From positions 1 to 64,000 of the IMG/VR virus record IMGVR_UViG_3300002071_000003: a stretch of 64,000 nt of DNA; one strand, given 5' to 3'. The notes under the pieces are model-generated. The model searched no databases. It had not been told where the DNA came from and saw only the letters and a program-made list of their open reading frames with translations. The stretch comes from an uncultured virus (IMG/VR IMGVR_UViG_3300002071_000003). Taxonomy: Duplodnaviria; Heunggongvirae; Uroviricota; Caudoviricetes. Shown piece by piece: positions 771 through 33,818 of this stretch; position 1 is the stretch's first letter; each line of letters begins with the position of its first letter. Both the position numbers and the translations under genes were made by a program.

Positions 771-774
771 ACAG

Positions 775-1152: not shown

Positions 1153-1157
1153 ATAAT

Positions 1158-1919: not shown

Positions 1920-2022
1920 AACTCATCCTTCTTAGTTCTTAGCTCTCTCTTATAATCCTTATGATTTCTAAGAGCCTTTTGTTTGACTTTAGTTTTATAT
2001 TTCTTTAAGTTATTTGTCATAA

Positions 2023-3003: not shown

Positions 3004-3400
3004 TTGCGTAAGCCTCCTTTTTCATATCAGATAGTTGCTGTTTAAAGGAGGCCGAAAGAAGTCTTTGCTTATCCGTCCATCGTTGATAAGGAGGAACACC
3101 CTCTCTAAATTTAAATGCTACGTCTGCTTCTTCTTTCTTAATCTGAAAGTATGGATACATAATTGTTAGAATACGGGCAGCCTTCGCGCCCTCAACTGAC
3201 CATTGATATACCCCTAAGGGACTTCTCCATATACTACCCCCATTCCCAAATAGTTTGGCGAAGTAAGTAAGGGGTGCTAACCTCTTTTGACTTATCTTTA
3301 TCTCTAAACTATAGTACTTTTCGTGGTGGTGGCTACGGATTAAGATACAGCCCTCTCCATCAAAGAAGCCCGCCGCCCACGCTATCTCCGTTTTCTTCAT
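2996..3400 (-). CDS. free-standing LAGLIDADG homing endonuclease (single motif)
   Basis: IAWAAGFFDGEGCI motif, ISQK, and LxPYFxIKK-type C-terminus. Confidence 0.9.
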   Translation of the reverse strand: MKKTEIAWAAGFFDGEGCILIRSHHHEKYYSLEIKISQKRLAPLTYFAKLFGNGGSIWRSPLGVYQWSVEGAKAARILTIMYPYFQIKKEEADVAFKFREGVPPYQRWTDKQRLLSASFKQQLSDMKKEAYANG

Positions 3401-16395: not shown

Positions 16396-16671
16396 CTACC
16401 TAACTTCAACACGACATTCCACGCGGCCGTTTCCATCCTCAGCAGTAATCTCGATTGTGTGTACAGAGGAATTTCCAGCGTCCCCTTTATAATTACGATC
16501 CTTTATCTTCATAGGAGAAGTAGCCTTTCGTAAGAACGCGGTTATGTTTATATCACGAAGAATGTTTCTCTCTGATGTAGGATTAAACGTATTAGAATTA
16601 AAAAGGAAATAAGTTGCATCTTGACCATCAATGTATATTTTCAAGCCACTCGGATAGGCCAAATTAACCAC
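16396..16671 (-). CDS. small beta-rich tail-associated protein
   Basis: End of the tail-tip cluster; IYIDGQD...HTIEIT pattern. Confidence 0.5.
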   Translation of the reverse strand: MVNLAYPSGLKIYIDGQDATYFLFNSNTFNPTSERNILRDINITAFLRKATSPMKIKDRNYKGDAGNSSVHTIEITAEDGNGRVECRVEVR

Positions 16672-17764
16672 CCCCTGTAAGGTTATAATCTAACTCTGTT
16701 ATATTATTAAAACTAACTGTTGCTGACTGTGTTTGGGTTATGTAGCCATCATAAGTTGCTGTAACAGAGTACGTTCCGGGGGCTAGGCTATAAAAACCAT
16801 AACCTCCAAACTCATCTGTTGTAGCGTGACCACCAAACAGATTACTAAATGACATAGCTACCCCCGTTAATGGGGTACCACTAGCTATATCGTAAACATG
16901 CCCTATTAAATAACCATAACCTACTCCTAGCAAATTAATATGGGTATTATTTTGCTCGTCCCCCCAGCCGGAGCCAACAGAAAATCCAGCAATATCATTA
17001 ATTTCTACCCAGCCCGCTACTGTATCGCCTTGATAGAGATTAACGCACGTAGCGTATAGAATAGAGTTAGTAGGAAAAGAAAGCTTATTATTGGCTACCG
17101 AGTAAATCTTTTTTGATAAGGTTTCTATAAGGGGATAAGCATCTGAGCGATCTACCCTAATTGACTGAGTAAAGAAGGCTGCGTCACTCATAGCTGTTCC
17201 CCCTATGGTACACTGGAACAAAACTGAGTAGACACCATCAGTTGGTATTTTTATCCTTCCATTAGGGGCAATAGAGTAGCCTGCAATATCATCAAAAGGC
17301 TGATATATAGGAACAACAAAGGGACTTTGATACCCGTAGTTAAAATTAGCTCCTGTTTGAATTAGCCCCATATGAGTTCTAGTTGTTGTAGGCTCCCATA
17401 CGTTATATTCCCAAGCAGGAGTAGCATCCCCTTCGTATATAGCTGGATAGGGCTTATTAAACTCGTAATCCAGTGCATCAGGGGGTCCAAATGATTCCGC
17501 CTTAAAGTAACCTTCGCAATCTCTGCCCGTTGTTGCGGCTCCCGGCTCACACTCACAGCAATTATCTGGTTTTATATTTATGGTAAGAAGTGCGGAATGG
17601 TTGGTTTTGGTCAGAGGAAATTCTAAAGTATAGCTATTATTATTTGATAGTATGTCAAGTTTTCTTTCTACAAGTGGAAAATTAGTCTGATACTGCCTTG
17701 TATTTAAAGCTGCTTCTTTTCGTGTGTTAGAAATTCCTTTGGCTAATTGATCTAATCTTTTCAT
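16664..17764 (-). CDS. tail-tip protein: shared N-terminal module, C1q/TNF-like domain and carboxypeptidase-regulatory-like Ig domain
   Basis: IKIPTDGVYSV...LYQGDTV; GHVYD...TTDEFGGY.F..LAPGTYSVTATYDGY. Confidence 0.7.
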   Translation of the reverse strand: MKRLDQLAKGISNTRKEAALNTRQYQTNFPLVERKLDILSNNNSYTLEFPLTKTNHSALLTINIKPDNCCECEPGAATTGRDCEGYFKAESFGPPDALDYEFNKPYPAIYEGDATPAWEYNVWEPTTTRTHMGLIQTGANFNYGYQSPFVVPIYQPFDDIAGYSIAPNGRIKIPTDGVYSVLFQCTIGGTAMSDAAFFTQSIRVDRSDAYPLIETLSKKIYSVANNKLSFPTNSILYATCVNLYQGDTVAGWVEINDIAGFSVGSGWGDEQNNTHINLLGVGYGYLIGHVYDIASGTPLTGVAMSFSNLFGGHATTDEFGGYGFYSLAPGTYSVTATYDGYITQTQSATVSFNNITELDYNLTGGG

Positions 17765-18486: not shown

Positions 18487-18737
18487 AGTACACCCGCAGG
18501 GTGAATTGCTCTAAGCGACCTAAATTTTTCGTAAAAGGTTAAAGTTAGATAGGCACTACCGCCCCCATATATTTTAAATTCCAGGGTATAAGGGTATAGA
18601 ACACCAAGTAAGTCGTTTGATTTTTCTATCAGGTTAAGATTTTCAGCAATGTAATTAGTGGTATCCCTTGTCTCATCCTGAAAGCGCCTTATCTTATTCC
18701 CAACTCTTATTATATGATCTGCGGCCATGTTATACAC
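18474..18737 (-). CDS. small tail-tip protein (shared N-terminal module only)
   Basis: ENL..IE...YTLEF...SAYLTL resembles the N-termini of 16664 and 17764. Confidence 0.6.
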   Translation of the reverse strand: MYNMAADHIIRVGNKIRRFQDETRDTTNYIAENLNLIEKSNDLLGVLYPYTLEFKIYGGGSAYLTLTFYEKFRSLRAIHPAGVLWTK

Positions 18738-21454
18738 TCCATTGAATAGTCTGTACCCGCACTGGAAGATTGATTCCTTGTAATTGTTATTGCTCTAACA
18801 CGAACTTCCAAATCAGTGTTCTTGACTATAAAACTATCACCTAAGTTTACAGGTAGGGGACCGGGGGCATAGGTAACTATAATTTTCTTCTGCGGTGTTC
18901 TACGCTTTAATAACTCTGCTCTAGATGCCCCAATAAGTGTAAAGTAATCTCCAATATTTCTAAAGTCATACAAACGCTGAATGGTTCTTCCAAACAGCTT
19001 TCTAGTTACCTTGTTCTCTACTACCGTTGTTAAGGGTAATCCATCAATATCTGAGCCTGAAGATATAAGCATAGTTGCTACTTGGCTAGAATCCTCATCA
19101 TCTTGGATACTAATCGTAGTTCCCCTGCCCTCTGCAAAGATTACATCTGTATCCGTTCCAATTCTTGGGACAACTAAAATACCGTTTTCCGTTACATCCC
19201 ACTCTAGTTGTAGTGCTTCACATGTATTTTTTAGTATCTCTAGATGTGTTGTGTTTACAAACTTAACGCTAAGTCCGCTTGTCTCATGAACCCCTAGGCC
19301 ATCTACATACATAGGAGCAGTATCATCCGGTTTCCAAATATAAAGTTGGTGATGTGCCCAAGGTAAGCCGGTATCAGTAAAGAAATCATTAGAATCAAAG
19401 ATGACCACTTGTGGAACCTCATAGGCACTCTGTAGGTCAACTATGAGTGAGCCATCTGCTTCCCCACCGGGAATGGGATACGTACCCGGTCCAAAGGGAT
19501 TCCATAAGAATACCTGAATCTTGCCAGAGTTCGGACCCTTCTTAGCATAAACAATAATCCTATCCCCTGTAAAGGTGAAGCCCATCTTCGCAACATGCCC
19601 TACATCCTTAAACTCATATACACTACCGAAGGAGTCTGCTGAATTAAAAAGCTGTGTTGCTTCAGTTAGCGCCGCTATTCCAAACCTATTATCATCCTCA
19701 TTAATTTCTGAGAAAGAGGCTGACCAATATCCTGCAAAGGCATCAATAGATACATAACCACCATTTAGATTGGTAATTTTTAATTCATAATTTGTGTCGT
19801 CTTGAAGTAGAGCAGACTCATAGGTTATCTCATAGACCTTTTCTGCTGAAACACCTACAGGAAGCGTAAGACCAGCTTCTAATGTGTCCCAGTCAGTCCA
19901 TATACCTGCACCATCCTTGGATCGCAATTCAATGGATACTCGACCTGCTGTAGAGCCTTCGGGTATGGTGGCAAACCATTTTAGTGAGACTCCCCTAAAG
20001 TGTAGAACAGCCGTATCATTCTGTACAATAGTGTGGGAGTAACTTCCCCCATAAGAAAAGGCATCTACAGTACTTATCCATGCGTCAGCTTGCGTTACTT
20101 GGGTAGAGGCATCGCTAAATAACAGCAGTCTAGAATAAGCGGGGCACGATAAGGTATAACTTCCACCTGTATATAAAATATTATTAAACTCACTCTTTAC
20201 TATATTTCCCCCACCAGATGTGTATGTAACCCTTCTAAAAAATCCACCCGGTTCAAACTTAGTACCGGAACCAGCACTAATCATTTCACTAGCGTCGGGT
20301 ACATGATAATAAGTAATCTGTCTATTATCATCTTGTATTTGGTGGTATGCTAGGTTAGGGATGTTATCCCTACCTAGAATTTTTCTATATACACCTAATT
20401 CTACTACCGAAGCATGGCAGTTACTTGATGGATTTAAGTCAGTTTTAGGAATAATTCCCCCACTTACTGTTGGGGAAATAGCACTATTTCCAAACAGCAC
20501 ATTACTTTCCCCACATTCCCAACCCCACTCATCAGAAGAGACACCAGCTAGGGCATTTCCATACCAAGCATGTGCATCCCTTATATTTACCTTCCAATAT
20601 TGTGCTTCTACTGCATCCCCATCTACCGCTATCTGATGATTATCAAATCCTGTTTCCCCCCCATAGTAAATAGGTGTCCCACCAATAGCCGGGTCCATCC
20701 AAGCACCATCATGAGGTCCAACAGTAGTAAAATCAGTAGTAAATCCGCTATCAGGACTATCTGAGTGTGACCAATCCCACTCGTATGTTCTAGTATTCCA
20801 AACTGTTGGCCCACCCCACCAAGGAAGTAACACTAGGGCTTTAGAAATGGTATACTTGTCCCCTAGATTAACTGTAAGATAATCTGCTTTGTCTATCCCT
20901 GTCCAGAAAGCATCGCTCTTTTTTGTTCCTCGCTCTGGCGTATCTCTACCAATAGAGATAAACCCTGTTTGCTCATCAATGGCAAAATCTTTGGTACGTA
21001 GACTTAAGCCGTAGTAATCAGAACTAGTAGCCTTGTTAATGATAGTTGAAGTACGAGGCTCACCAGCAATATTTTCGTAACGCAGGTCATCAAAGAACTG
21101 GTTAATTGGATAATAGAATGTTTGGGTGCTCTTATAAAACTCTTCCAGTAAGGCCGATCTACCGGGACCAGATATCTTTTTAGTTTGTCCACTAGTATAA
21201 CTAATTGCAGTAATTGGCCCATAATTTAGTCGCACGTTTGTATCTGTATCCCAACATTCCCACCAACGGATATAAGTAACATACTGCATCTTGGGATCAT
21301 TAAGGGGCATCTCAAATGTAATAGTTTCGTCACTAGAGCTTACTGTCTTAACTAGTGAAACATTTTCCGCCCGCTCAATAATTACCGGGTCTACAAAGCT
21401 TACCCCGCTGGCAAAATTTGGTAACGAAAGCCTAATCTGTAGAATCGTATTCAC
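18710..21454 (-). CDS. baseplate hub / Tal-like tail protein with inserted discoidin and CBM-like domains
   Basis: Position after Dit; ITFEMP..DPK N-terminus; PRIG..and GDSF.V..RAITITR C-terminus; internal jelly-roll repeats. Confidence 0.7.
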   Translation of the reverse strand: MNTILQIRLSLPNFASGVSFVDPVIIERAENVSLVKTVSSSDETITFEMPLNDPKMQYVTYIRWWECWDTDTNVRLNYGPITAISYTSGQTKKISGPGRSALLEEFYKSTQTFYYPINQFFDDLRYENIAGEPRTSTIINKATSSDYYGLSLRTKDFAIDEQTGFISIGRDTPERGTKKSDAFWTGIDKADYLTVNLGDKYTISKALVLLPWWGGPTVWNTRTYEWDWSHSDSPDSGFTTDFTTVGPHDGAWMDPAIGGTPIYYGGETGFDNHQIAVDGDAVEAQYWKVNIRDAHAWYGNALAGVSSDEWGWECGESNVLFGNSAISPTVSGGIIPKTDLNPSSNCHASVVELGVYRKILGRDNIPNLAYHQIQDDNRQITYYHVPDASEMISAGSGTKFEPGGFFRRVTYTSGGGNIVKSEFNNILYTGGSYTLSCPAYSRLLLFSDASTQVTQADAWISTVDAFSYGGSYSHTIVQNDTAVLHFRGVSLKWFATIPEGSTAGRVSIELRSKDGAGIWTDWDTLEAGLTLPVGVSAEKVYEITYESALLQDDTNYELKITNLNGGYVSIDAFAGYWSASFSEINEDDNRFGIAALTEATQLFNSADSFGSVYEFKDVGHVAKMGFTFTGDRIIVYAKKGPNSGKIQVFLWNPFGPGTYPIPGGEADGSLIVDLQSAYEVPQVVIFDSNDFFTDTGLPWAHHQLYIWKPDDTAPMYVDGLGVHETSGLSVKFVNTTHLEILKNTCEALQLEWDVTENGILVVPRIGTDTDVIFAEGRGTTISIQDDEDSSQVATMLISSGSDIDGLPLTTVVENKVTRKLFGRTIQRLYDFRNIGDYFTLIGASRAELLKRRTPQKKIIVTYAPGPLPVNLGDSFIVKNTDLEVRVRAITITRNQSSSAGTDYSMECITWPQII

Positions 21455-21461: not shown

Positions 21462-24400
21462 TTAACTATCTATTTTAACTGGACGTGCCTCGAATGTTAG
21501 AGTGTACTTTAGAATTGTAGAACTCTCTGGTACCTGCTTTGAAACAGCCAAAGAGTTTGCAATGGCTAAATAGTACTTATCTCTATGCTGTATATATAGC
21601 GGAGCAAATCCCCGTGCTGACCGCATAATTGTAGCTGCTAATCTAACCTTATCCTTACATGCTTCATAGGTTGGTTCCCATACAAGCATTTCTATTGTTA
21701 TTACAGTATTTTTAAGCCCTGTATCTTCAGATAATGCACCATCAATATATGGTGCAGGATATGAGTTAAGACTTACTTCATTTGAGTAGGATTCTGACTG
21801 GGCATACCCCGGCAAGTCGTGACCATTGAATCGCACAAGATATGTATAATAGTCACTAGTTGGCCCTATACCGGGGGGAATAGCCTGTCCCACTACTATA
21901 TAACCCGCTGCTAGGCCAAATTTAGGGACATTGAAGGCTATTATGCGTGCTTGGGCCTGACTAAACTTATGGTACCCTACCCAAACCATAGCTTGTCCTG
22001 TGACTTTGTATTGCTTGGATATCCGCGTTCTGGCTTGTGCCCCTACCCAATGTCTCTCAAACAACACTGCCAAGGCTTGTGCAATCGGAGAGTATACTTG
22101 TTTAATCCAAACTCGTGAATTACCCTCCGAATAATAGGTTTGCACCATATCTGCTTGTGCCTGCGCTGTTTCTAGACCTGTATTTAATAGTGCTACCGCC
22201 CCGCCAATTTCTCTATAGGTTTGCCTAATAGCTGCCTGTACTTGGGAACTAGGCCAAGGATAAATATATACAGTTGCCTGTGCGTATCTCTGTATACCTA
22301 CCCCTCTAATAAGAGCTTTTGCTTGCGCCCATTTCCAGTTCTTGGTAATGTATGCTTGGGTACTAGCAAATTGGAAGTGGCCTATATAAACTTTGGTTTG
22401 ACCATAGCTTTTACCGTGTCTCCTATCCAAAATAGTTACTAGGGCCTGTCCAGCCCATTGTGGCTTAGTAATCCATACCTTTGCATAACCTGTCTTTACA
22501 TATGTTTGCAATACCCTAGCCTTAGCCTGCCCAAATTGAGAAACATCATAAGCTATTATCCGTGCTTGCGCATTAGCAATAACAGTAGGGGGTATAATCC
22601 AAGTATTTGCTTGGTTATATGTATTAAATGTTTGTAAAATATCAACAGTGGTAAGTCCTGTTACTGTAGGTGGGATTACCCATGTATTGGATTGACTGCT
22701 CGTTTGGTACGTAGTGATAATAGTTACTAGGGCCTGTCCAAAGGCGGTAAGGCCAAAAGCGGGCCACAAGAGGGTTCCAGCTTGTCCTACAGCAAAGTGT
22801 CCAAAGGATGCTTGTGCCTGAGCAAATGTTCCAGATTTAACTGTAGCAAATCCTAACTCAAACGTTAGAATAGATACCCCATTATTTGTACCAAGATTAT
22901 CTACCAGTAATCTCCAAAGACTTGTTGTTATAGAAGGTAGCTCCCCTGCTATAGCTTTTGAAGCATCAATCGGATCGAAGATTCCTACGTTAAACGATAT
23001 ACCCTGTATAAGCTCCTGCCAAGCACCATCCCAATACTGTAAACTTACAGTAGCATCATACCTAACTGGAACTATTCGGTAATAGTTAACAGTTCTATCT
23101 TGCCCAAAGTCTATTTGTAGCCATTCATCATCCTGAATCCAGACACCGTTCTCGAAATAGGCTTGAGGACCAAAGATTTCCCACACTGGTCCGGCGTCAT
23201 TTCCATCTATAACGTTTATCGGGGTTAACTGCCCCATCGAATCTATTGCTGTAGCACCCATAGTAGTCAGGGCATAATTTGTATCCATACTCATTAACGG
23301 ATATGTTTGCTTAATCCGAGTCTGTGCTTGTCCCGTTACAACAGGGGTTAGGTACCAGAATTGTGCCTGACCAAACCCACTGTACGTTTGTGGAGGGCGC
23401 GTTGTTCGGGCTTGGAAGTGTGTGAGAATTTGACCGGCAGACAGTTCGTGATCGAAGATCGCAAATTCATCCAATCCACCATTCCATGAGTATTCGTCAT
23501 AACCTAACCACACATCTTGCCCAAAGGTTCTGGCAGTACGGGACCCTCTCACTTGCGATAGAGCTTGCGAAACCCCATTAATATAAATCTTGTTTGCTAT
23601 TGCTTCGTCTTGACCTGAGTACCATACCATTGCAACATGGAGCCATTTATTATCAAGACCTGTTGAGGCAAGACCGTAAATATCTCCACCATTTGAATTA
23701 AATCCGTAGTTGCCCCCATAGAAATAGAGACCTCCCCAAGGGGAGCCACTACTACCAAGATAATATGCCGCAACATCGTCTGTTCCGGTCCAGTACATCC
23801 AGAATTCAACAGTAATGGCACTTCCAACGGTTGTAGGAATCCATCCATAGTCGCTTCCTATTTGTTGAGCTAGTATCTTGTGTGCGTTTAATTGCCCTAC
23901 ACCCCACCCACCACCATAAGGCCAGAAGATTGATGTTCCTTGATTTGATAGGCTACCAGTTACACCAAAAGTGGCACCGCTTTTATTCCAAACAGCATCC
24001 CCTCTACCTACTAAGGTATGAAGAATACCTGCCTCTTGTCCTACTGAAACACCCAAAGCAAATCTAACAAGATTTGTTGCATCCCCATTATAGGCTTCTA
24101 CTTCTGAGAATCCAGGATCACCATTTCCATCCGAATCGCTTATTAAACGCATCCATGTAACATTTGTAGCAGGGGCAGTGTAGGTTGAAACCTCCCCACT
24201 AGTAGAAGGGAATGTTACATTATAAGAAGTACCATTGCTATATAAAATTCTACCAGACCCAAACGTATAGTCGGGCCTATTAGTTACTTTTACTGTTAGT
24301 ATGCTTTGTGGAGCACCCCAAGTTACTTGCCACCACTCACCTATAGTGTAGCCTGCACTTGCCCAACCATTATCGGTATTACCGTCTGCCGCAAATTCTG

Positions 24401-27251
24401 GTAAATAACCTCCGTCATAAAAGTTATAAGCACTATAAGCTACTTCTCCACCATAATATGTTTCATCTAGCGGATAATAGAGTATAGGTCTATCAGTAAG
24501 AACAGCCTTTCTATACCCTAGAACATTGTATCCAATTTGCGCAATTGCTTGGCCCGGTCTAAATCCACCGATCTGTAATTGTGCCTGACCAGATACAGCA
24601 ATATCTGTTACCTTTATGTATACTTGGGCTTGGCTGCGAGCAATGGTGGAACTTATCTCTGCATTAACCTGTGAATATTGTGAAAGCCCTAGATAATAGG
24701 GAGTCCACGGAGGATTGTTACTGGTTAATATGTTCCAATATGTGTCTGCTGGTCGCATATATTGTACAATCCAGCCATTTATTGTCCAATCCCCATACCA
24801 ATTTGTAGTGATTTGGTACGTAGTTCCCTCAGTAAGGGAGATAGAGCCGGTTGCATATCCACCATCAACTTCTGCACTTGCAGTTAGAACAGTGGTGGCA
24901 TCTATATTTAGATACCCTGAATAGTCGGCAAACATTTGGAATTGCCATGTACCCGATACATCAGCAACGAAGGTTCCTGTTGCCCACCACTGGGCATTAT
25001 CAGGCATTGAGTATTCAGGAAAGTTAGGCCATCCGGGTGTATTTACAATGTAATAGGTAGTATCATCCTGATTTACATACAACCCCATATTGAATGTTGG
25101 GACATAGAAAGGATTAAAAGCAGCTTGTGCCTGTGCAGACTTAGAAGTATCTTTATATATTACTTTTACTCTTGCTTGTGCATAGTGATTAGTGGTAGCA
25201 AATATAGCAACAGCAGCCTGACTAATCTGTTGGAAAATATTCATTGCTCCCGGTGTCAGGTTATATATATACCAAGAAGCACCAGCAAATCCCCAACGCC
25301 AAGTAATTAAGGCCCCTGCTTGGGCATAAGCCTGTAGCTTACCTGCAATATAGTGGTCGGCTACTTGAGCAGAAGTTAATACCGTATTATAAGCGGCTAT
25401 ACTGTCATATATAGGGTAATAGTTTTGAGAAACGTTTGAACCCTGATAAGGTGAGTAGTCTAAATAGAAATAATTACCGGCAACAGAAGACCCATTCCAT
25501 TGATTTGTTTGTACACCATTTACATAGAAAGTAACTGTTCCATTATCGTAAGTAAGAGCAAGATAGTACCAAGAAGACCATCCGTTACCAGCATCTACTG
25601 TAACATTAGAGTTATAAACGGTACTTCCCCACATAGTAGTAACATAGTTACCCAACGAGTTAGGGGTGGTTCCGCCCTGTCCAACAACAACACTAGAGCC
25701 TATTGAGAATATTGGAGCTTTACCTGAAATGCCATAACCCGTATAGAATTGTACCCACCCTTCAAACGTCCATTGGGTACCTTGGAACCTAGAATAAGTT
25801 GGGGAATAAAGATATCCGTAGTAATAATAGAAACTATGAGCCTGTCTATATGGGGGATTTATACCACCATAAGGGGAACCGTAATTAAAGTAGTTATCAT
25901 AGTATTTTGTTAGAGTATAATTACCAATAATATCTTGTGGGCCACTAGATTTAGGTCCCTCCATTGGCCAAAAGCTTACAGCACCGTCTTGCTTTACCTT
26001 ATATGCATAGCTGTTATAAGGGCCAATATCAAGCCATGCTTGTGCATTAGCATATCCTGCGCCCTTTTTAATGAATGCCTGTGTTTGGGAAAAAGTATTA
26101 TTATCAAATACTAGAATATCTGTTTGTGCCTGTCCAACCCACTGTGATTGATTTACTACGGCTAATGCTTGGGAAAATACACTAGATACGACAAGTATAT
26201 TAGCGTTAACCTGAGCATTAGATTGATTATATAAGAACGCGCCAACACCCTTAACAATAATATTATCAAACTTTGAAGCCTCATTAACACTAGACTCATA
26301 GATATCAAGAAGGCCGGGGCTATTGCTGCCTAATTGATTTACAGGCCATGAGGTCTGAATTACTGTCCACGTAACAGGTTCAGTATCTCCTACTTTCCAA
26401 AAATGTATCTTAACGTGATTGGAATCTGTAGTACTTATTACAACGTGTGTTGTGTACCAAGCACTTCTAGTTGAAATAGGCCATGATCCATTACTATTGG
26501 GGCCTGATATATTGTAGGAGGTTTCAGTATTAGTTGCACGAAAATACCAGTTACGATCATACCAATATGTATAAGCACCATTATCACCGGATGCAGGAAT
26601 CCATATATCCATAAAGAACTCGCCATCATTATTACCTGTAGTAGCACCAGTATTATATAGGGAGTCATAAGTTTGCCCACTAGGTATAGGCATAACCAGC
26701 ACAGAGCCATTAACATATATAGGGGTAGTACTTGCATTCCACCTAGTATCCCAACCTGACCAGACCCACGGTTGCCCTGTATCGGCATTACCTATAGCAA
26801 ATGGGGGCGCAGTTGTAGTACGACTAAACGTATCCTGAAATACAGTAGTATACCGCTGGATTGATATCCAAGCAGTTGCTTGGGCATAAACTTGTTGGGA
26901 AATTAATATACTAGTTTGTGACTGGGCATATTGGGGCACGTCAAAGGAGATGATCTGTGCCTGCGCCTGCCCCTTTCCATATGGAGCAGTATAAATATAA
27001 ATAATTTGGGAATTAGTTTGGGCATAAGATTGGAAAGTACTACTTACAGCTATTTTAACCCGAGACTGGCTACTATTTCGATATGTAACTAATATCTGCC
27101 CTTGGGATTGAGCATAATAGGATTGATTAGATAGTACTTGTACAGCAGTTTGTGCGTATACACTACTAATTACGGACTCTAGCAATAAAACGCCAGAACC
27201 ATCTTCAAGTAGATACCCACCAGAACTGTCTTCAAGAAGATATTTAGACAT
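21462..27251 (-). CDS. giant QAQ-repeat virion protein with LamG, PA14 and discoidin inserts and a C-terminal Dit-like domain
   Basis: 14-15-aa (Y/F)AQxQxxI repeats; LamG motifs (TFEGWV, LALTYD..YVNG, DEFAIF); C-terminus paralogous to 28120-28848. Confidence 0.8.
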   Translation of the reverse strand: MSKYLLEDSSGGYLLEDGSGVLLLESVISSVYAQTAVQVLSNQSYYAQSQGQILVTYRNSSQSRVKIAVSSTFQSYAQTNSQIIYIYTAPYGKGQAQAQIISFDVPQYAQSQTSILISQQVYAQATAWISIQRYTTVFQDTFSRTTTAPPFAIGNADTGQPWVWSGWDTRWNASTTPIYVNGSVLVMPIPSGQTYDSLYNTGATTGNNDGEFFMDIWIPASGDNGAYTYWYDRNWYFRATNTETSYNISGPNSNGSWPISTRSAWYTTHVVISTTDSNHVKIHFWKVGDTEPVTWTVIQTSWPVNQLGSNSPGLLDIYESSVNEASKFDNIIVKGVGAFLYNQSNAQVNANILVVSSVFSQALAVVNQSQWVGQAQTDILVFDNNTFSQTQAFIKKGAGYANAQAWLDIGPYNSYAYKVKQDGAVSFWPMEGPKSSGPQDIIGNYTLTKYYDNYFNYGSPYGGINPPYRQAHSFYYYYGYLYSPTYSRFQGTQWTFEGWVQFYTGYGISGKAPIFSIGSSVVVGQGGTTPNSLGNYVTTMWGSTVYNSNVTVDAGNGWSSWYYLALTYDNGTVTFYVNGVQTNQWNGSSVAGNYFYLDYSPYQGSNVSQNYYPIYDSIAAYNTVLTSAQVADHYIAGKLQAYAQAGALITWRWGFAGASWYIYNLTPGAMNIFQQISQAAVAIFATTNHYAQARVKVIYKDTSKSAQAQAAFNPFYVPTFNMGLYVNQDDTTYYIVNTPGWPNFPEYSMPDNAQWWATGTFVADVSGTWQFQMFADYSGYLNIDATTVLTASAEVDGGYATGSISLTEGTTYQITTNWYGDWTINGWIVQYMRPADTYWNILTSNNPPWTPYYLGLSQYSQVNAEISSTIARSQAQVYIKVTDIAVSGQAQLQIGGFRPGQAIAQIGYNVLGYRKAVLTDRPILYYPLDETYYGGEVAYSAYNFYDGGYLPEFAADGNTDNGWASAGYTIGEWWQVTWGAPQSILTVKVTNRPDYTFGSGRILYSNGTSYNVTFPSTSGEVSTYTAPATNVTWMRLISDSDGNGDPGFSEVEAYNGDATNLVRFALGVSVGQEAGILHTLVGRGDAVWNKSGATFGVTGSLSNQGTSIFWPYGGGWGVGQLNAHKILAQQIGSDYGWIPTTVGSAITVEFWMYWTGTDDVAAYYLGSSGSPWGGLYFYGGNYGFNSNGGDIYGLASTGLDNKWLHVAMVWYSGQDEAIANKIYINGVSQALSQVRGSRTARTFGQDVWLGYDEYSWNGGLDEFAIFDHELSAGQILTHFQARTTRPPQTYSGFGQAQFWYLTPVVTGQAQTRIKQTYPLMSMDTNYALTTMGATAIDSMGQLTPINVIDGNDAGPVWEIFGPQAYFENGVWIQDDEWLQIDFGQDRTVNYYRIVPVRYDATVSLQYWDGAWQELIQGISFNVGIFDPIDASKAIAGELPSITTSLWRLLVDNLGTNNGVSILTFELGFATVKSGTFAQAQASFGHFAVGQAGTLLWPAFGLTAFGQALVTIITTYQTSSQSNTWVIPPTVTGLTTVDILQTFNTYNQANTWIIPPTVIANAQARIIAYDVSQFGQAKARVLQTYVKTGYAKVWITKPQWAGQALVTILDRRHGKSYGQTKVYIGHFQFASTQAYITKNWKWAQAKALIRGVGIQRYAQATVYIYPWPSSQVQAAIRQTYREIGGAVALLNTGLETAQAQADMVQTYYSEGNSRVWIKQVYSPIAQALAVLFERHWVGAQARTRISKQYKVTGQAMVWVGYHKFSQAQARIIAFNVPKFGLAAGYIVVGQAIPPGIGPTSDYYTYLVRFNGHDLPGYAQSESYSNEVSLNSYPAPYIDGALSEDTGLKNTVITIEMLVWEPTYEACKDKVRLAATIMRSARGFAPLYIQHRDKYYLAIANSLAVSKQVPESSTILKYTLTFEARPVKIDS

Positions 27252-27394: not shown

Positions 27395-28102
27395 CTACAC
27401 GAACCTGATCCAGTCGAAGGCAGCTTCGACCTTAGCGCCGTAGTAGTCACTCACGACGAAGCCGACACTGGCAAGGGTCATCTCCGGGTCGATTGTGGCG
27501 GCCCCCTCCGTCCAGAGGAAGCCGGTATAGGAGTATTGGCACACAACGTCAGTCGAGGACGTGACGATCATCCGCAGGTACAACGGCGGCCAACCCGCTG
27601 CAAAGGCGGCATTGTCTAATCGCGTTGTCGGGTCTGTCCATATCTGGCGACTCAATCCGCGGCCGGATTCCCAGTATTGGCCCCAAGTGAGCAGCTTGCC
27701 CGGCGACGCCTCCCCAACGAAGATGCCCGCGGACTGATAGTCGGCGCCCACCGTCGTGTCGCTGAGTTTGGCCGTCACCGTGTACGGCATCGTGGGCGCC
27801 GCCTTGTAGGTGCCGTCCAGTCGCCACTCCCCCGCCGTCCGCCCGATGTGGACGTGGCTCGGGAAGTCGGTGACGTTCGCCGTGTCGAGCGTGCCGAGCG
27901 TTGTCCAGCCCGAGAGCGTGTCGAACTCATTGTCATAGGCACTGGGCGATGACGGCCGGGTGTCCGGCGAGACGCCGCCAAAGAGCGTCTGAATCTGTGC
28001 AACTGTTAATTTCTTTGGTGTTCCACCCTCGTTGACAGGAATTTCCTGAGTACCAAGAGCAGAGGAAGCAGCAGTAAGAGCGCTAATTTTTGTATCAGCC
28101 AT
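27395..28102 (-). CDS. MADTKISAL-adaptor protein with a high-GC ConA/lectin-like C-terminal domain (putative receptor-binding module)
   Basis: Low-GC N-terminal ~37 aa followed by a GC-rich beta-sandwich (DNEFD...SAGIF...LYLRM...YS..G..W...FDWIRF). Confidence 0.7.
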   Translation of the reverse strand: MADTKISALTAASSALGTQEIPVNEGGTPKKLTVAQIQTLFGGVSPDTRPSSPSAYDNEFDTLSGWTTLGTLDTANVTDFPSHVHIGRTAGEWRLDGTYKAAPTMPYTVTAKLSDTTVGADYQSAGIFVGEASPGKLLTWGQYWESGRGLSRQIWTDPTTRLDNAAFAAGWPPLYLRMIVTSSTDVVCQYSYTGFLWTEGAATIDPEMTLASVGFVVSDYYGAKVEAAFDWIRFV

Positions 28103-28119: not shown

Positions 28120-28848
28120 TTATATGTACCAATGATCGTAGTAACTTATACTTGCTGATCCATCTACTGTAAAGGTTGTTCTTCCCGGCCCCACATATAA
28201 GCGGTAGTCCTTTGTAGTAACAAGCGCGTTCTTATTAACGCCCCCAATTGTAGCCGTGAAGGCTTCTGTATCCACAACCAATCCGGTAACGCCAGTTGTT
28301 ACAATACTGCCTGTAGACTGGCTATCCGCAGTCATACCGCTTATGCTATTCCCTGTTAGTGTTACGATAGTAGGTGTCCAGCCTCCACTATATATTGTGC
28401 GCCCTACTTCATCAGTGTCACTACTTATCACATGAAGTTCCTCACCAATTAACCAAGGGCGGCATTCAAAATCTACCTTATAAGTAAGCTGGCGCACAGA
28501 ACTTCCAGTAGCCTTATCCGTAGTAATAGATTTAACCATTGCAGAATAATGTTTATCCGCATATTGTACGTACAAATTTGCCCATCCGCCTCTATAACTT
28601 CGTAGATACGTAGCAGCTAACTCTACTTGTTGTTTACAGGTTAGGTAGTCTGTTTCCCACACCAGTAACGTCAAAGAAATAACTTTATTTGCTAACCCAG
28701 TCTCTTCTGAAGGGCTTCCGTCGATGTAAGCTCCATAATGTTGTACAACATTCATCATAGAGTCAAAGCTCTCTGATTGAACATAGCCGGGAAGTACGTA
28801 ATTGTTATAACGAGCAAGATATTGCTGCGCTGGACCTAAAGGACTCAT
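28120..28848 (-). CDS. distal tail protein (Dit)
   Basis: Immediately after the tape measure; FECRPW and LYVGPG..TF...YYDHW motifs. Confidence 0.75.
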   Translation of the reverse strand: MSPLGPAQQYLARYNNYVLPGYVQSESFDSMMNVVQHYGAYIDGSPSEETGLANKVISLTLLVWETDYLTCKQQVELAATYLRSYRGGWANLYVQYADKHYSAMVKSITTDKATGSSVRQLTYKVDFECRPWLIGEELHVISSDTDEVGRTIYSGGWTPTIVTLTGNSISGMTADSQSTGSIVTTGVTGLVVDTEAFTATIGGVNKNALVTTKDYRLYVGPGRTTFTVDGSASISYYDHWYI

Positions 28849-28862: not shown

Positions 28863-31800
28863 CTATCCGCCAGATATTTGACTGCCTAATCCAGCAGCAA
28901 CGGCATTACCTAGTTGTTCCATTTGTGCTTTGGTAAGAACCTGACCAGTTATGTTTAGGCTTACTGTGATTGGTCCCTGTGGACTACCCACGCTGACTCC
29001 ACTTGTCTTGTTGGTAGGAACATTTGCCAAAGCTGCAAAGTCTCCTGCTCCCACACGAATTCTACGAATGGTATCTGCCTTAGTAAGAACGTCAGTATTA
29101 GCTTTAATTGCGTCTGTTTGAGCAGCCATTCCCTTACTTAGAGCATCGGATGATAAGCCTACCTTTAGTAGAACTCTTGTGTTACCTTCCATTACTGCAA
29201 CTATGTCGTTTTTACTGGCGGCTGTTGCATTCGGGATAGCAGCCTCATACTTCGTAGCCCAAGCTATTGCTTTATTCATTGTATCCATAATATTCATCTT
29301 TGTATCTATCCACTGTTGGGGAATCTCGACCGTACTGGGAACAACTAATGCAGGAGCAGCAGCCTTAGGTGTGGTGGCAGCTTTAGATGCTTTAGTACTA
29401 ACATTCATCGGACCCCCACTCATTAACATCCCCTGAAGTGTTTTTTCGTAACTCGCTGCATCTGCTGCGGCTTTTTTACCAGCGGCTACCGCTGCTGCTT
29501 GCTTGTCCATAAGGGCCATTACGGTCGGGTCCCCGATCAGGAAGCCCGGTGAAGGATTATTCCCTGCTGCTGATCCTATCGTACTTACTTGTACCGTTAT
29601 AGTTTTAACTATATCTGGTGTATCTTTGATTAGCTGTAGAGCAGTAGATAGCTTTATAAGCATTGTTATAAGGTTATTTATTTGAGGCCCAGTCATTCCC
29701 ATCGTTCTAGCCATATCTAGTATTGCTATACCAGTATCCTCAGTCTTACCATATAATATGCTTTCCATCCCTGCTAGACTTCCAAGTTGCTCCTGTAAGA
29801 CAGGGACAATATCTGTATTTTCTTGAAAGGCAGCATCTAATTTAGCATAGCCAGTCTGCATGGCTGTTAATTGACTCAACTGTGATGCCCCCACAGATGG
29901 AGTTATTGCTTTACTAACTACTTGCGACTTTACGCTTAATATGTCCGCAGCTATTTTACCTTTTGCGGCGACTGTGGAATCATCAATAGCTTGTGCTAAT
30001 ACACTATAATCTACTGCGGCTTGATTGGTTGCTGTTCCTAAATAGTCAACTGTTGCGCCCAAGTTTCTAAGCATCATAACCTGTGTGGGTAAATCCATAT
30101 TACCAAATGCTGGACTTACTAAAGATTCGGCTGCTACTAAGTCTTTCCAAGCTTGGGTGTCTGTTTTAATTGGCTCACCATTTAACGTAGATACCGCTTT
30201 CATGTACTCCTGTACCATTTTTATTGAACTATTTGTTGTAGTTGCATCGACTCTACCGGCAGAGTCCGGCTTTATGGGTTGGGACTCTAGCTTGGTTAGC
30301 AAAGTACTTGCAAAACTAAGGTTGCCCATTACTAAGTTAACCTTATCCTGAGTCATACCGGAAACGCCAGCGATTACTTCCGTATTAAGATACGCTTTAG
30401 CCTTCGCTAAATACTCTGTTGCCGCTGTAAGATCACCAGTGGGTACCTTAGCATCAGTTAAAGCATTTGTATAGTCTTTCATATTAGAGATTTGATCTGC
30501 AAATTGAGTAGTTCCGCCCCAAAGTGAAGCGGCTGAACTCTTGTCTATAACTGTTCCGGGGTTTAATTTTAGGCCACCTGATCCATTATCTTGAAAACTA
30601 GATTTAAATGCTTCTAGCGGAGACTGTGAGGTTGCACCAGGATTCATGTGCTTTATAATATCTGCCCTTTGTGCATCAGTTAATCCTTGTATATCTCCCA
30701 AGTTATCGGTGGCCAGTTGGGGGCTGGTGCGTGCTGGCGTAGGAATAGCGTCAGGAAGACTAGATTGGAATGTGAGCGTTGGTGGCCCTTTACCTAACTC
30801 TGTTGGACTAACATACATGTTAGGATAAGCAGCCTTTAGATATAGCAATTGAAGCGTTGAATATACCTGAGAAATCTGTTCTGCGGTTGCTGTTCCTGCT
30901 GATACGGCTGCAATTAGATCGGCATACCCCGGACCCATTCCGGGGATATTTCCTCCCGATTCTGCCATAGCAGCACTAAGGTCACTATATGATTTGGTTA
31001 GATCATCATTGGCAACAGATAACTTAGCGGAAACATCCGCTAAATTGGTTTCAGCATCTATTTTAGCATACATAGAAGCTGTATCTTTAGCTGATCCTAA
31101 CTGACCAACCTGTGCTATTAGACTATTTTGCTCATCTATTAACAAGGTAGTATTAAGTTTAGCCGTAGTGTACGCTGTAGCGGCCGATAGAACAGCATCC
31201 GAAGTACCGTTTAAAGCATCCGAAGCCTTTTTGGAATCTCCTGCAAATAGTGCTAATGCCCCACCCGCTGCTATTAGTGCAATTCCAAGTGGAGATAGAA
31301 CACCAGTTGCCGTAAGTGCCGCACCAGTCATTGCGATACCAGCAGCGCCTATTCCTCCACCAATTGTTTGAAGCATATTTCCGCCTACTGCTTGTACTGC
31401 TGTTGCACCAATCATTGCAGGCATTATTGCTTTAGATGCCATACCTACTAATCCTGATACTGAGAATCCTGCACCTGTATTTTTTGTTGCTAACTGCGCT
31501 GCGGTTCTTGTTCCTGCTGCTGCGCCCATTGCTCCACCAGCAAGAAAGCCTTCTGTATCCATAGCTGCTGCTGCAACAGCTTTTTGAGTTACACCCCACT
31601 CTGCTGTCTTTGCTATTATGCCTGTTAGCATTCCACTAAGGCCATTATATGTACTTGTTATTAAGCTTACTGCTATTTGGGCTATCTTAATAGCCGCTAT
31701 AAAGGCAACAACTTTTACTGCGCCCTCTATCCATCCCGAAGGAATGCCCTGAATAACATTAATAAGTTTTATTATTGCAGATGAAACACTTGTAATAGCA

Positions 31801-33818
31801 TCCCTAATAGCAGGGCCAAAGGTATCGAACATAAGGGAATCTAACTTAGTCTTTAGTTGGACTATTTTAGCACTGTTTGTTTCAAGTATCTTAGCATTTG
31901 CAAGCAAGGCATTGTTTTGAGCATTGGCAGCAATTGTCGTTGAATCCGCTATTGGTGCAAAGTTTGATAGAATAGCTGCTAAATCAGGTGCTCGTCTAGG
32001 TCCACCGGCCATAGCCTTTTCAACTGCTTTTACTTGTCCCGCAGGTATTTCTCCTGTTTGTATAGCGGTATAAACATCCTGTAGAATAGATAGGAAGTCT
32101 CTAGCATTTCCCTGTGCATCCTTTACCTGAATCTTAAATTTATCTAGCATCTTAATAGATGCAGTAGAGTCAATTGATCCAACAAGGTTCTTGAAAGAAA
32201 CCGCAACTTCTGATGCAGACTTGCCTGTTACCTGACCTAATACCTGTAGGAAGCCAATCATTTGATCAAGGCTTAATCCTGCTGTTGAAGCAGTTTCACC
32301 CATTACTGATAGGCCCTTCATAATTTCTGCAATAGCGTTGGCCTGACCACTAGCAACCGCTGAAACTTTATTTAGAACGTTTATCATATCATCAGCATGT
32401 AAGCCTAACTGCTTCATAGCAGCAGTTAAATCGTCTGTCGCTGCAACAGTATCGACACCAGCAATATTAGTATAAACACCTACAGCAAACATCAAGTTAT
32501 TCATTTGAGCACGCCATTCATCAGTTGATTGCCCGGCTCTCTTGGTTGCTAAGGCTATATCGTCAACAGAAGACAACATCTCATTTAATGGGGTTGCTGT
32601 TTCATATGCCACTTGTGCTACGGTATCAAAATATGTTCTAGCTTGTGCGGTACTCATTTGGGAAGTAATTCCAAGCTTCTGAACTAACTGATCTATCAGG
32701 TTGATATTTTTAAGGCCACCCATTGCAGCACCTAATGCACCGATAACAAAGGTTGTAGCAATAGTCCACTCAATAACCTTTACAAAGTCTCTCTGTATCT
32801 GAGCTAAGAAGTTGCTCATACCAGATAACTGACCACCAAATCTTGTAATAACTTGTCCATTAGCCCCAATTTCTGCTCCGAAACTCTTTACCTTTCCTGC
32901 CGTATCTGTGAACGATCCACCAACCTTAGTTACGTTTCTAACTAAGTCTTCATATGGTTGGTTGAAGTTGGCAGTGCCGGAAAGGTTTCCCATTTGTAAG
33001 CCAGCCTTTTGCAGCATGGTGGATAGTTGCGGAGAGGCTGCAAGAGTGGATGAAACATTTGCAGGGGTAGGTGCGGGATTAGCAGCCGTTATATATGCAG
33101 ACTTCATCTGTGCTTCTGCTAACCTTATTTTTTCTGCTTGCGCTTTAATAGCATCAGCTTGTTCTGTACCACCAACCTCGATTGCTCCTGCAACTTTTGC
33201 TGCCGATTCTGTCTGTAAGGCAACTAATTGAGCAGTTTCGGCATTTTGGAAGGTTGTAAGTCCTCCCACTCTGCCTTTCATCGCTGCGGTAACTTCTTTT
33301 CCACTTGCTTGATAAGCGGCTACCTCAGCTTTAGAGCCTGCTAATATACTGGCTCTTGCAGTGGTTGATTGCTGAAGTGCAGCAATCTGTGACTGGTATG
33401 GCGCAGCAGTCGATGCAGCAACAGTTTTCTGCACTCTTTCCATTTCTAGAGAAGCGTCAGAAACACCTTTCATTGCCCCAATTACTTTTTCACTGTTTAC
33501 AGTCGCAGTTTGTACCCAACCAGTGGACATGAAATCAAATACTCCCGCCTTAGTAGTTGGAAGATTTATTCCTGTCTCTTGAAAAACTTTGGCCGACTTG
33601 TTAAGGGCATCAAACTCTACTCTAGCACTTCTGATTGTGGGTCCAAGAGCCTGTACCTGACTACCTAAACCACTAATCCCCATTCCCGCCCCAAACATCG
33701 ATTTAGCTGAAGCCTGTAAAGCCTCATTCTGTGTTCTAACAAACGTAGCAACATCGCCCACGCTAGACAATACCGCTGATGCTCCTGCTGATGTTAACCT
33801 AAACGCAATATCAGGCAC
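28863..33818 (-). CDS. tape measure protein
   Basis: 1651 aa, Ala/Gly/Thr-rich, TP901-type core (GLSLDQMIG...GKSASEVAVSFK); follows the tail chaperones. Confidence 0.92.
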   Translation of the reverse strand: MPDIAFRLTSAGASAVLSSVGDVATFVRTQNEALQASAKSMFGAGMGISGLGSQVQALGPTIRSARVEFDALNKSAKVFQETGINLPTTKAGVFDFMSTGWVQTATVNSEKVIGAMKGVSDASLEMERVQKTVAASTAAPYQSQIAALQQSTTARASILAGSKAEVAAYQASGKEVTAAMKGRVGGLTTFQNAETAQLVALQTESAAKVAGAIEVGGTEQADAIKAQAEKIRLAEAQMKSAYITAANPAPTPANVSSTLAASPQLSTMLQKAGLQMGNLSGTANFNQPYEDLVRNVTKVGGSFTDTAGKVKSFGAEIGANGQVITRFGGQLSGMSNFLAQIQRDFVKVIEWTIATTFVIGALGAAMGGLKNINLIDQLVQKLGITSQMSTAQARTYFDTVAQVAYETATPLNEMLSSVDDIALATKRAGQSTDEWRAQMNNLMFAVGVYTNIAGVDTVAATDDLTAAMKQLGLHADDMINVLNKVSAVASGQANAIAEIMKGLSVMGETASTAGLSLDQMIGFLQVLGQVTGKSASEVAVSFKNLVGSIDSTASIKMLDKFKIQVKDAQGNARDFLSILQDVYTAIQTGEIPAGQVKAVEKAMAGGPRRAPDLAAILSNFAPIADSTTIAANAQNNALLANAKILETNSAKIVQLKTKLDSLMFDTFGPAIRDAITSVSSAIIKLINVIQGIPSGWIEGAVKVVAFIAAIKIAQIAVSLITSTYNGLSGMLTGIIAKTAEWGVTQKAVAAAAMDTEGFLAGGAMGAAAGTRTAAQLATKNTGAGFSVSGLVGMASKAIMPAMIGATAVQAVGGNMLQTIGGGIGAAGIAMTGAALTATGVLSPLGIALIAAGGALALFAGDSKKASDALNGTSDAVLSAATAYTTAKLNTTLLIDEQNSLIAQVGQLGSAKDTASMYAKIDAETNLADVSAKLSVANDDLTKSYSDLSAAMAESGGNIPGMGPGYADLIAAVSAGTATAEQISQVYSTLQLLYLKAAYPNMYVSPTELGKGPPTLTFQSSLPDAIPTPARTSPQLATDNLGDIQGLTDAQRADIIKHMNPGATSQSPLEAFKSSFQDNGSGGLKLNPGTVIDKSSAASLWGGTTQFADQISNMKDYTNALTDAKVPTGDLTAATEYLAKAKAYLNTEVIAGVSGMTQDKVNLVMGNLSFASTLLTKLESQPIKPDSAGRVDATTTNSSIKMVQEYMKAVSTLNGEPIKTDTQAWKDLVAAESLVSPAFGNMDLPTQVMMLRNLGATVDYLGTATNQAAVDYSVLAQAIDDSTVAAKGKIAADILSVKSQVVSKAITPSVGASQLSQLTAMQTGYAKLDAAFQENTDIVPVLQEQLGSLAGMESILYGKTEDTGIAILDMARTMGMTGPQINNLITMLIKLSTALQLIKDTPDIVKTITVQVSTIGSAAGNNPSPGFLIGDPTVMALMDKQAAAVAAGKKAAADAASYEKTLQGMLMSGGPMNVSTKASKAATTPKAAAPALVVPSTVEIPQQWIDTKMNIMDTMNKAIAWATKYEAAIPNATAASKNDIVAVMEGNTRVLLKVGLSSDALSKGMAAQTDAIKANTDVLTKADTIRRIRVGAGDFAALANVPTNKTSGVSVGSPQGPITVSLNITGQVLTKAQMEQLGNAVAAGLGSQISGG

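Follow-up and report, generated by a model that had tools for sequence, protein, structure and literature searches.

The giant protein P0001 and the standalone Dit

The window, which is the whole 64,000-nucleotide stretch of DNA analyzed here, represents the first 64 kb of a 75.9-kb virus record in IMG/VR (uncultured virus IMGVR_UViG_3300002071_000003), a record estimated to be 63% complete. Nearly all of its genes lie on the minus strand, and the structural module is transcribed in the order large terminase, portal, tube-like protein, tape measure protein (TMP), P0002, P0003, P0001, and P0004. The TMP (1,651 amino acids [aa]; 28863..33818, minus strand) was recognized by matches to PHROG 14917 (E value, 3.3e-13) and PHROG 4211 (E value, 3.5e-11). 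Directly after it comes P0002, the standalone Dit of 242 aa (28120..28848, minus strand), followed by P0003, a variable accessory gene product of 235 aa (27395..28102, minus strand). The next gene encodes P0001, a protein of 1,929 aa whose whole open reading frame (ORF), including the stop codon, occupies 21462..27251 on the minus strand according to the ORF list and the translation. It is followed by P0004 (914 aa; 18710..21454, minus strand), probably the tail-associated hub protein (Tal) with a large internal insert. P0001 is a giant, N-terminally extended paralog of the phage's own Dit.

P0002 is laid out as an N-terminal ring domain (residues 1 to 135) and a galectin-like domain (residues 136 to 242), the latter without an insert. 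Its homologs of 133 to 424 aa numbered 127, of which 45 were aligned (alignment A1). An AlphaFold2 (AF2) model of P0002 was obtained with a predicted local distance difference test (pLDDT) score of 82.6 and a predicted template modeling (pTM) score of 0.74. When this model was searched against the PDB with Foldseek, 14 chains matched at an E value of ≤1e-3. The top match was the SPP1 Dit gp19.1 (2x8k; E value, 3.6e-10; TM score, 0.64; about 250 columns), and the other best matches were the NF5 baseplate, the monocin tip, TP901-1 (4v96), 80alpha (6v8i), p2 (2wzp), and mycobacteriophage Douge. All of these best matches were siphophage or tailocin Dits aligned across both domains; the weaker matches were tube, Hcp, and baseplate-hub proteins and involved the N domain only. 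A phmmer search of P0002 against the PDB sequences returned nothing (best E value, 0.88). Because of the fold match to Dits and the gene position right after the TMP, with the Tal-like P0004 further downstream, P0002 is a classical two-domain Dit at the level of its predicted fold.

The C terminus of P0001 resembles the N-terminal half of this protein. By BLASTP, residues 1804 to 1924 of P0001 matched residues 10 to 131 of P0002 with 57 identities in 122 positions (47%), 65% positives, one gap, 113 bits, and an E value of 2e-32. In a six-frame search of the 75.9-kb record with P0002, exactly two places were found, P0002 itself and 21471-21863, the latter with 45% identity (E value, 3.0e-32) to query residues 3 to 134 and lying inside an open frame of 1,931 codons. 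A hidden Markov model (HMM) of standalone Dit N domains matched the C terminus of P0001 with an independent E value of 6e-44. By homology to P0002, the Dit N domain of P0001, a tube-like, ring-forming fold, spans residues 1804 to 1925 (21477..21842, minus strand). The last 470 residues of P0001 were modeled with a mean pLDDT of 66.8 from 11 aligned sequences, and the C-terminal part of this model matched Dit and tube-fold proteins. Compared with the SPP1 Dit, model residues 341 to 467 gave a VIA Z score of 10.5 (root mean square deviation [rmsd], 3.9; 106 residues aligned) and a Foldseek E value of 3e-3.

P0001 stops 4 residues past the Dit N domain and has no match to the C-domain HMM, so that the galectin-like half is absent. 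Between the preceding repeat rod and the Dit domain lies a Pro/Gly-rich linker (residues 1787 to 1803; 21843..21893, minus strand), which corresponds to a pLDDT of <50 at model residues 328 to 344. The linker is missing in several relatives, in which the last repeat abuts the Dit domain.

The likeness between the two proteins had been proposed in the initial annotation of this DNA, and most of its particulars were borne out. The last ~130 aa of P0001 do match P0002, at a level of identity and significance far beyond chance; the match is to the N-terminal half of the Dit, as had been claimed, and stops at residue 131 of 242. All of the motifs quoted at the time (LPGYAQSES, YIDG..SE.TGL, LVWE, CK, LAAT.MRS, and FEARP) are present in the translation. 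The interval then given, 21462-21851, corresponds to the stop codon plus the last ~130 codons and encloses the Dit-like domain proper. The fold search suggested for both domains was run, and P0002 and the P0001 C terminus each matched the SPP1 Dit; the assumption that the protein at 28120 has a Dit fold was upheld by the strong Foldseek match described above.

Distribution and age of the giant Dit paralogs

When IMG/VR was scanned with the alignment of Dits, 14 loci were obtained, one of which (L003) is the window's own phage. HMMs of the N and C domains of Dit were built from alignment A1 and run on all ORFs of these loci. A plain Dit of 241 to 257 aa was present in all 14 loci, and a downstream ORF of 1,000 to 3,047 aa with a terminal Dit module was present in 11 of them. 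The module was complete, with N and galectin-like domains, in nine loci (L004, L007, L008, L009, L010, L011, L013, L014, and L015) and consisted of the N domain only in two (L003 and L012). The giant ORF reaches the contig end in L005 and L006, and no giant Dit fusion was found in the available sequence of L016, the most distant locus (35% identity). Synteny was constant, with a tube-like protein, a protein of ~237 aa, the tape measure, Dit, 0 to 3 variable genes, the giant fusion, and a P0004 homolog of ~910 to 1,078 aa. The relatives of the window phage lie on contigs of 105 to 121 kb.

Protein searches added 9 long proteins of 1,261 to 3,162 aa with a Dit-module end, together with 25 such proteins among those of 497 to 2,000 aa. 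Among the 28 distinct long proteins that these made up, the module was complete in 24 and restricted to the N domain in 4, and 5 had 130 to 346 residues past the module. An exhaustive profile search of 1.84 billion protein-cluster representatives returned 167 matches at an E value of ≤1e-3, including 109 at ≤1e-30. The best 150 of these 167 representatives were classed with local HMMs, a long form being defined by a Dit N domain starting after residue 150. By this definition, 91 of the best 150 were long forms, with lengths of 294 to 3,747 aa (median, 1,177) and a median of 28 repeat motifs; 86 of the 91 begin with M. A complete module stood at the very C terminus in 73 long forms and was followed by more than 15 residues in another 7, giving 80 of 91 with a complete Dit module, and the N domain stood by itself in 11. 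The rest of the best 150 comprised 28 plain-Dit-like proteins or fragments of ≤300 aa, 8 proteins with an N-terminal Dit and a C-terminal extension (301 to 607 aa), and 23 other proteins or fragments. Plain Dits are under-counted in this census, since their conservation merges them into a small number of clusters at 50% identity.

Thus, the N-domain-only state of the window's copy is a minority state, and most relatives have a complete C-terminal Dit. The Dit fusion had been described as unusual in the initial annotation. The fusion proved to be real, but it is no one-off: it is an old and widespread paralog, carried by 11 of the 14 loci.

In the closest N-domain-only relatives (L012 19495-19911, P0125, and P0126), a Pro-rich linker replaces the galectin-like domain. 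After the linker come 4 to 5 more 'GQA..I' repeats and an end of the form 'LPGAPYNLVA.PGD...LSWSPPPY'. With repeats past the linker, the Dit ring domain of these proteins is internal, with arms on both sides.

A maximum-likelihood tree was inferred from 25 Dit N domains, 14 plain and 11 fused, from which L001 to L003 were omitted as copies of the window. In no locus did the fused copy group as sister to the plain one, and the fused copy of the window paired with that of L012 (support, 100/99). The plain and fused labels need two changes on the tree, and a single origin is compatible with its well-supported branches; the fused row of L010 grouped with the long-branched plain copy of L016, a placement that we regard as unreliable. 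On average, plain copies were 59% identical to one another and fused copies 42%, which was also the mean identity between the two classes. From these sequence comparisons, the fused copies evolve faster than the plain copies, and the duplication is old. A recent tandem duplication or a gene-fusion artifact was rejected, since the fused and plain copies of one locus never group as sisters and the fusion occurs in 91 of the best 150 representatives.

These data also bear on whether P0001 has a place in the virion at all. It might be a decaying duplicate, an artifact of assembly or annotation, or a nonstructural protein, and all of the evidence does come from metagenomic contigs. However, the frame of 1,929 codons is uninterrupted, the same architecture recurs across the long forms counted above over their whole range of lengths and nearly always with an initial M, the synteny from Dit to Tal is conserved, and so are the core residues of the domain. 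We therefore consider a nonfunctional P0001 to be extremely improbable.

The arm of P0001 and the surrounding genes

The ~1,800 residues of P0001 that precede the Dit domain hold six lectin-type modules separated by repeat rods. A Laminin_G_3 module at residues 478 to 631 (25359..25820, minus strand) matched PF13385 with an E value of 5.8e-7, and a second Laminin_G_3 or ConA-like lectin module at residues 1143 to 1275 (23427..23825, minus strand) matched the same family with an E value of 2.3e-15. A galactose-binding-like module of the F5/8-type-C/DUF7402 kind spans residues 943 to 1054 (24090..24425, minus strand; PF24135, E value of 2.9e-10; PF22633, 7.2e-9; PF00754, 1.3e-8). Two modules were weaker, namely, a PA14-like module at residues 740 to 822 (24786..25034, minus strand; PF07691, E value of 0.001, 19.4 bits against a cutoff of 24) and an F5/8-type-C-like module at residues 1334 to 1416 (23004..23252, minus strand; PF00754, E value of 6.8e-4, 20.2 bits against a cutoff of 28.2). 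PA14 is among the precomputed annotations of the relatives P0128, P0129, P0130, and P0144. A globular region without a family match occupies residues ~136 to 340. Judging from their families, the six modules are probably carbohydrate binding. The earlier description of the N-terminal ~1,800 residues as an adhesin stalk agrees with this layout of LamG, F5/8-type-C, and PA14-like modules on repeat rods.

The rods are built from a repeat of 14 to 15 aa with the consensus 'x-Y-A-Q-A-Q-A-x-I' (more loosely, 'x-Y/F-A/G-Q-A-x-A-x-I'), which has no family in Pfam, PHROG, or NCBIfam. A motif scan of P0001 gave 37 loose matches with a dominant spacing of 14 to 15. A long rod of ~20 repeats (residues 1471 to 1786; 21894..22841, minus strand) leads into the Dit domain, and a block of 7 repeats lies near the N terminus (residues 28 to 135; 26847..27170, minus strand). 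Shorter blocks were found by the same scan at residues ~341 to 400, 643 to 715, 856 to 900, and 1295 to 1315.

The long rod was modeled by AF2 as 21 consecutive beta strands in a single chain. In a VIA search, its best match was the curli protein CsgA of Pontibacter korlensis (8c50_A; Z score, 24.3; rmsd, 7.6; 273 residues aligned), followed by beta-helices with Z scores of 16.0 or less. A Foldseek search of the 470-aa model returned no match to the rod, all matches being on the Dit part. Both proteins have short, Q-rich strand repeats; the P0001 rod differs from CsgA in its sequence (3% identity to 8c50_A) and in its repeat length of 14 to 15 aa per strand, and it was modeled from only 11 sequences with a pLDDT of ~60 to 84. 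The match to curli is taken here to suggest neither homology nor amyloid behavior. Small residues (A, A, A, and I) alternate with Q, Q, and polar residues in the repeat, a pattern that would fit a narrow two-sheet solenoid.

The start of P0002 touches on the same repeat. Its first ~12 residues ('MSPLGPAQQYLARY'; 28807-28848, minus strand; consensus, MPLGPxQQYLA) look like the final part of a 'GQAQAxI' repeat, and the giant proteins of several relatives have their last repeat directly against the Dit domain at the place matching these residues. Taken together, these two features hint at structural continuity between the repeat and the first strand of Dit.

The same 14- to 15-aa repeat rod is reused in a second giant protein of this phage, P0152 (1,885 aa; 56498-62155, minus strand). 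P0152 consists almost entirely of the repeat, here in the form 'YAQAQTDIKQ' (39 strict and 76 to 82 loose motif matches), and has one Laminin_G_3 module at residues 345 to 487, the motif 'AFQSDAFQNGAFQ' in its interior, and a unique, hydrophobic stretch of ~65 residues at the C terminus; it has no Dit module. Just downstream, at 55016-56176 (minus strand), a 386-aa protein has a pectate-lyase-like right-handed beta-helix (Pfam Pect-lyase_RHGA_epim, E value of 2.3e-17; Beta_helix, 9e-16) and a weak match to a PHROG named 'tail spike'; from these family matches, it is likely a depolymerase or tailspike.

The giant proteins have short tandem motifs at their ends. P0001 begins with a triple 'LLED/LLLE' motif evident in the translation ('YLLED..YLLED..LLLES'; residues 1 to 27; 27171..27251, minus strand). 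Similar 'LVLSD / LLLVLSD' strings are found at the C terminus of P0152 (56498-56700, minus strand), and the relatives P0131 to P0151 begin with 'LG..(I/V)LG' or 'AFQ..AFQ' motifs. From their sequence, such motifs may be docking strands.

With regard to the neighbors of P0001, P0003 had no match in Pfam, PHROG, or NCBIfam, and its single relative among the ORFs of the 14 loci was a 489-aa protein of L007 (33% identity). This slot appears to be variable, since P0003 has one relative only and other relatives of the phage have 0 to 3 unrelated genes in its place. P0004 matched Prophage_tail (PF06605) only at residues 727 to 897 (profile positions 46 to 228), with an E value of 0.0017 and 18.5 bits against a cutoff of 31.3; a match to this family was seen in 1 of 8 orthologs. 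The nearest named atlas clusters of P0004 were Prophage_tail as well (scores of 0.83 to 0.84), which serves as a lead only, and a profile of its orthologs matched no chain among the PDB sequences. The N-terminal ~110 residues of P0004 are strongly conserved in the 8 orthologs, as is the gene position after the giant gene. Taken at the sequence level, this suggests a Tal hub split by an insert of ~600 residues with F5/8C-like pieces, and such a split hub seems more likely than a Tal-like domain that is C-terminal in the way that the Dit of P0001 is. Downstream of P0004, at 16664-17764 (minus strand), lies a 366-aa protein ending in a CarboxypepD_reg-like beta-sandwich (Pfam E value, 4.7e-11), which may be a further tail-tip accessory protein.

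Further upstream in the structural module, the large terminase (45616-47190) and the portal (43897-45597) were identified by PHROG matches. For a 392-aa protein at 34922-36100, the nearest named atlas cluster was 'phage tail tube protein' (score, 0.93), again a lead only. A terminase search with TerL retrieved a single record with 23% identity. A long-tailed siphovirus is the most likely identity of this phage, given that no sheath gene was recognized and that the tape measure is of great length. Between the packaging genes and the gene of P0152 lie 19 clustered tRNA genes (48181-54828, minus strand). Three glycosyltransferase-like genes are present on the minus strand at 14989-16191, 48563-49471, and 39061-39714 (PHROG 2170, E value of 3.2e-48; PHROG 1721, 6.9e-17; and PHROG 2456, 2.3e-6), one of them within the head-tail module.

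A proposed Dit-type ring with lectin arms

The N domain of Dit is tail-tube-like, and in known siphophages it forms a hexameric ring between the tail tube and the tail tip. P0001 ends in this fold, its gene lies between those of Dit and the Tal-like protein, and its lectin-type modules are carried on rods; for these reasons, we propose an adhesin arm rooted in a ring subunit. The best explanation, and one that we consider probable, is that the C-terminal domain of P0001 sits in a Dit-type ring at the tail tip, with its own stacked ring as the first choice, and roots the lectin arm there. The domain would enter the ring in line with the tube. A ring of P0001 by itself would form a further layer between the ring of ordinary Dit and the Tal hub, a position suggested by the gene order of TMP, Dit, giant protein, and Tal. 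Whether this ring is separate or mixed, a long, flexible arm would be rooted covalently in the ring subunit itself, and a single-chain rod, as predicted by the model with 21 strands and the curli CsgA match, would fit one arm per ring subunit. In the virion, up to six such arms would scan and bind glycans on the host surface before the tip engages.

The constraint on the domain was examined by comparing 45 plain with 95 fused copies, with positions numbered as in P0002 minus 2. Twenty-five positions were at least 80% conserved in both classes; they include the LPGY.Q.E motif, E48, G51, L52, N54, K55, Y68, K72, A78, T80, R83, and L92, as well as Y101, A103, Y123, F127, E128, P131, and W132. Ten positions, including W64 and E65, were conserved in plain copies only, and none was conserved in fused copies only. 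Thus, the fused domain is a copy of the ring domain in which the constraint is relaxed but still clear. The relaxation of the 10 positions speaks for another reading, in which the C-terminal module is not part of a ring on the tail axis but a monomeric adaptor that attaches the arm to the outer face of the plain Dit ring, of the tube, or of the Tal hub, and the loss of the galectin-like half in the window's copy indicates that the module can be trimmed. However, the tube/Hcp/Dit N fold is a known ring former, and the fused copies fully keep the core motifs LPGY, E..GL.NK, AAT.LRS, and F.E.KPW. In addition, this fold is not known to serve as a lateral adaptor, although no search aimed at such a case was made. 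Such peripheral docking is improbable in our judgment, even with the low score of one co-fold run (see below) on its side.

Another arrangement would place both paralogs in one ring, in which plain Dit and P0001 alternate (e.g., 3+3) in a hetero-hexamer that bears three arms rather than six. Three copies of P0002 (residues 1 to 135) were co-folded with three copies of the P0001 C-terminal domain, which gave a median ipSAE of 0.38 (0.18, 0.64, and 0.38 in the three runs). The best of three controls scored 0.00, and the three runs shared at least 73% of their contacts, with a partner pLDDT of at least 66. In the calibration of this method, 116 of 157 solved complexes and 2 of 215 mismatched pairs attained the mark, and a pass at or below 0.60 was wrong more often than not unless the pairing was already likely. 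The mixed ring thereby reached the mark weakly. The initial annotation had called for a mixed-ring model, and this co-fold gave it weak support without separating a mixed ring from a separate one, since a pass is expected for any ring paralogs with 47% identity; it may reflect the likeness of the models to solved Dit hexamers.

Other points in favor of a mixed ring are that the 25 shared positions, with none conserved in fused copies only, may leave the lateral interfaces compatible and that the window's copy could more readily do without a galectin-like domain if neighboring plain subunits supplied it. For c2 and bIL67, two lactococcal phages, a ring of alternating Hcp/Dit-like paralogs has also been predicted (PMC12474359). 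However, divergence to ~42% identity with unequal rates is more typical of separate assemblies, and a complete Dit in 80 of the 91 long forms among the best 150 representatives would be expected of a self-sufficient ring. The mixed 3+3 ring is a serious rival that we nevertheless consider unlikely. A separate ring of P0001 is favored because most relatives keep a complete, self-sufficient Dit module, because the paralogs have diverged and evolve at different rates, and because stacks of several rings are established, as in the second Dit hexamer of p2 (PMC7472080).

Several points weigh against a P0001 ring that roots a lectin arm. Neither P0002 nor the C terminus of P0001 matched a Dit family by sequence in Pfam, PHROG, or NCBIfam, and the window's copy is without the galectin-like domain that defines classical Dits. 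The 10 plain-only positions could mean a lost interface in the fused copies, and a stacked ring would need a Dit-on-Dit interface. The role in a ring is deduced from the fold, the gene order, and one weak co-fold pass; one of the three runs reached only 0.18, and the co-fold indicates compatibility at best, equally for a mixed or a separate ring. Carbohydrate binding is read from Pfam family names alone, with two of the six modules under the Pfam cutoffs, and the shape of the rod as a single-chain, curli-like beta-solenoid is a prediction from a model of moderate confidence. Expression of P0001 and its presence in the virion are presumed from metagenomic contigs, the sole source. The initial annotation's reading of a second or mixed Dit ring that projects long fibers is supported in part: paralogy, a Dit fold in both copies, lectin-type modules, repeats, and a pair conserved in a whole clade are shown, and the formation, position, and copy number of the ring, the binding of glycans, and a place in the virion are inferred. 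There is also no cultured relative to turn to, as no relative was found with the Dit alignment in representative genomes of 185,579 species or with tblastn of P0002 in 50,697 phage records; because of the former result, no host can be named.

A wider proposal, which is tentative and which we think rather less likely to be right than wrong, is that a whole clade of uncultured long-tailed phages of ~105 to 120 kb carries, in place of separate trimeric fibers docked on a baseplate, single-chain, curli-like cross-beta rods with lectin modules that are covalently continuous with the subunits of a second Dit ring. If true, such ring-rooted arms would represent a new principle of fiber attachment, in which the ring subunit is the fiber, and a new non-trimeric shaft.

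In siphophages, Dit universally serves as the hub of the adhesion device. It is known to be functionalized by small carbohydrate-binding modules (CBMs) placed within its galectin domain or by arms that hold separate receptor-binding proteins. Stacks of several tube-fold ring proteins between tube and hub are also known, for example, p140 above the Dit pb9 in T5 and gp48/gp54 in T4; to our knowledge, these are not Dit paralogs with fiber-length extensions. Compared with Dits of the SPP1 gp19.1 type (2X8K; TP901-1, p2, and 80alpha), P0002 has the same two-domain fold and the same gene position after the tape measure, and the C terminus of P0001 has the same N-domain fold. Unlike classical Dits, P0001 has ~1,800 residues before the Dit module (250 to 3,500 in relatives), its copy in the window is without a galectin-like domain, and there is no Dit match by sequence in Pfam or PHROG.

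In evolved Dits, such as those of Lactobacillus phage J-1, the lactococcal 936 group, and Streptococcus thermophilus phages, one or two CBMs are carried in the galectin-domain loops of the sole Dit (PMC7291167). The likeness to P0001 is that a Dit subunit serves as a carrier of carbohydrate-binding modules (same source). In contrast, the six modules of P0001 and its rods are all N-terminal to the Dit module, with no lectin-type module in galectin loops, and sit on a second paralog while a plain Dit is kept. The decoration of P0001 is an order of magnitude larger; P0001 lacks the trait by which evolved Dits are defined, but the principle of Dit as an adhesin carrier is shared. Lactococcal phage p2 has another hexamer of Dit (Dit-2), the two rings of one baseplate being joined via their N-domain rings, and this is a precedent for more than one Dit ring in a tail (PMC7472080). 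The p2 rings are described there as one gene product placed back to back, whereas the window encodes two diverged paralogs, one with a giant N-terminal arm. In the ceduoviruses c2 (L15/L16) and bIL67 (ORF35/36), paired Hcp-like/Dit-like paralogs are encoded by adjacent genes and each carry CBMs, so that two paralogous ring-fold proteins occur in one phage (PMC12474359). In these ceduoviruses, the decorations are small and lie at the C terminus, the alternating ring has only been predicted, and there is no giant N-terminal arm or repeat rod.

A full-text literature search, which did not cover subscription-only papers, found no N-terminally extended Dit and no Dit module at the end of a giant protein. 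A Dit at the C-terminal end of a giant, probably sugar-binding arm suggests that host-binding arms are attached to the tail in a manner not yet described. If this is true, a second Dit paralog that roots an arm of 250 to 3,500 residues would be a new building plan for the tail tip, and the pairing would raise the structural question of two stacked rings versus one mixed ring. A Dit module that ends a giant repeat protein, as found in at least 91 clusters at 50% identity, would provide a simple signature for finding receptor-binding proteins in uncultured phages. Trimeric fibers dominate phage biology. If the rod of P0001 is truly a single-chain beta-solenoid, it would depart from these trimeric fibers and could serve as a modular spacer in engineered binders.

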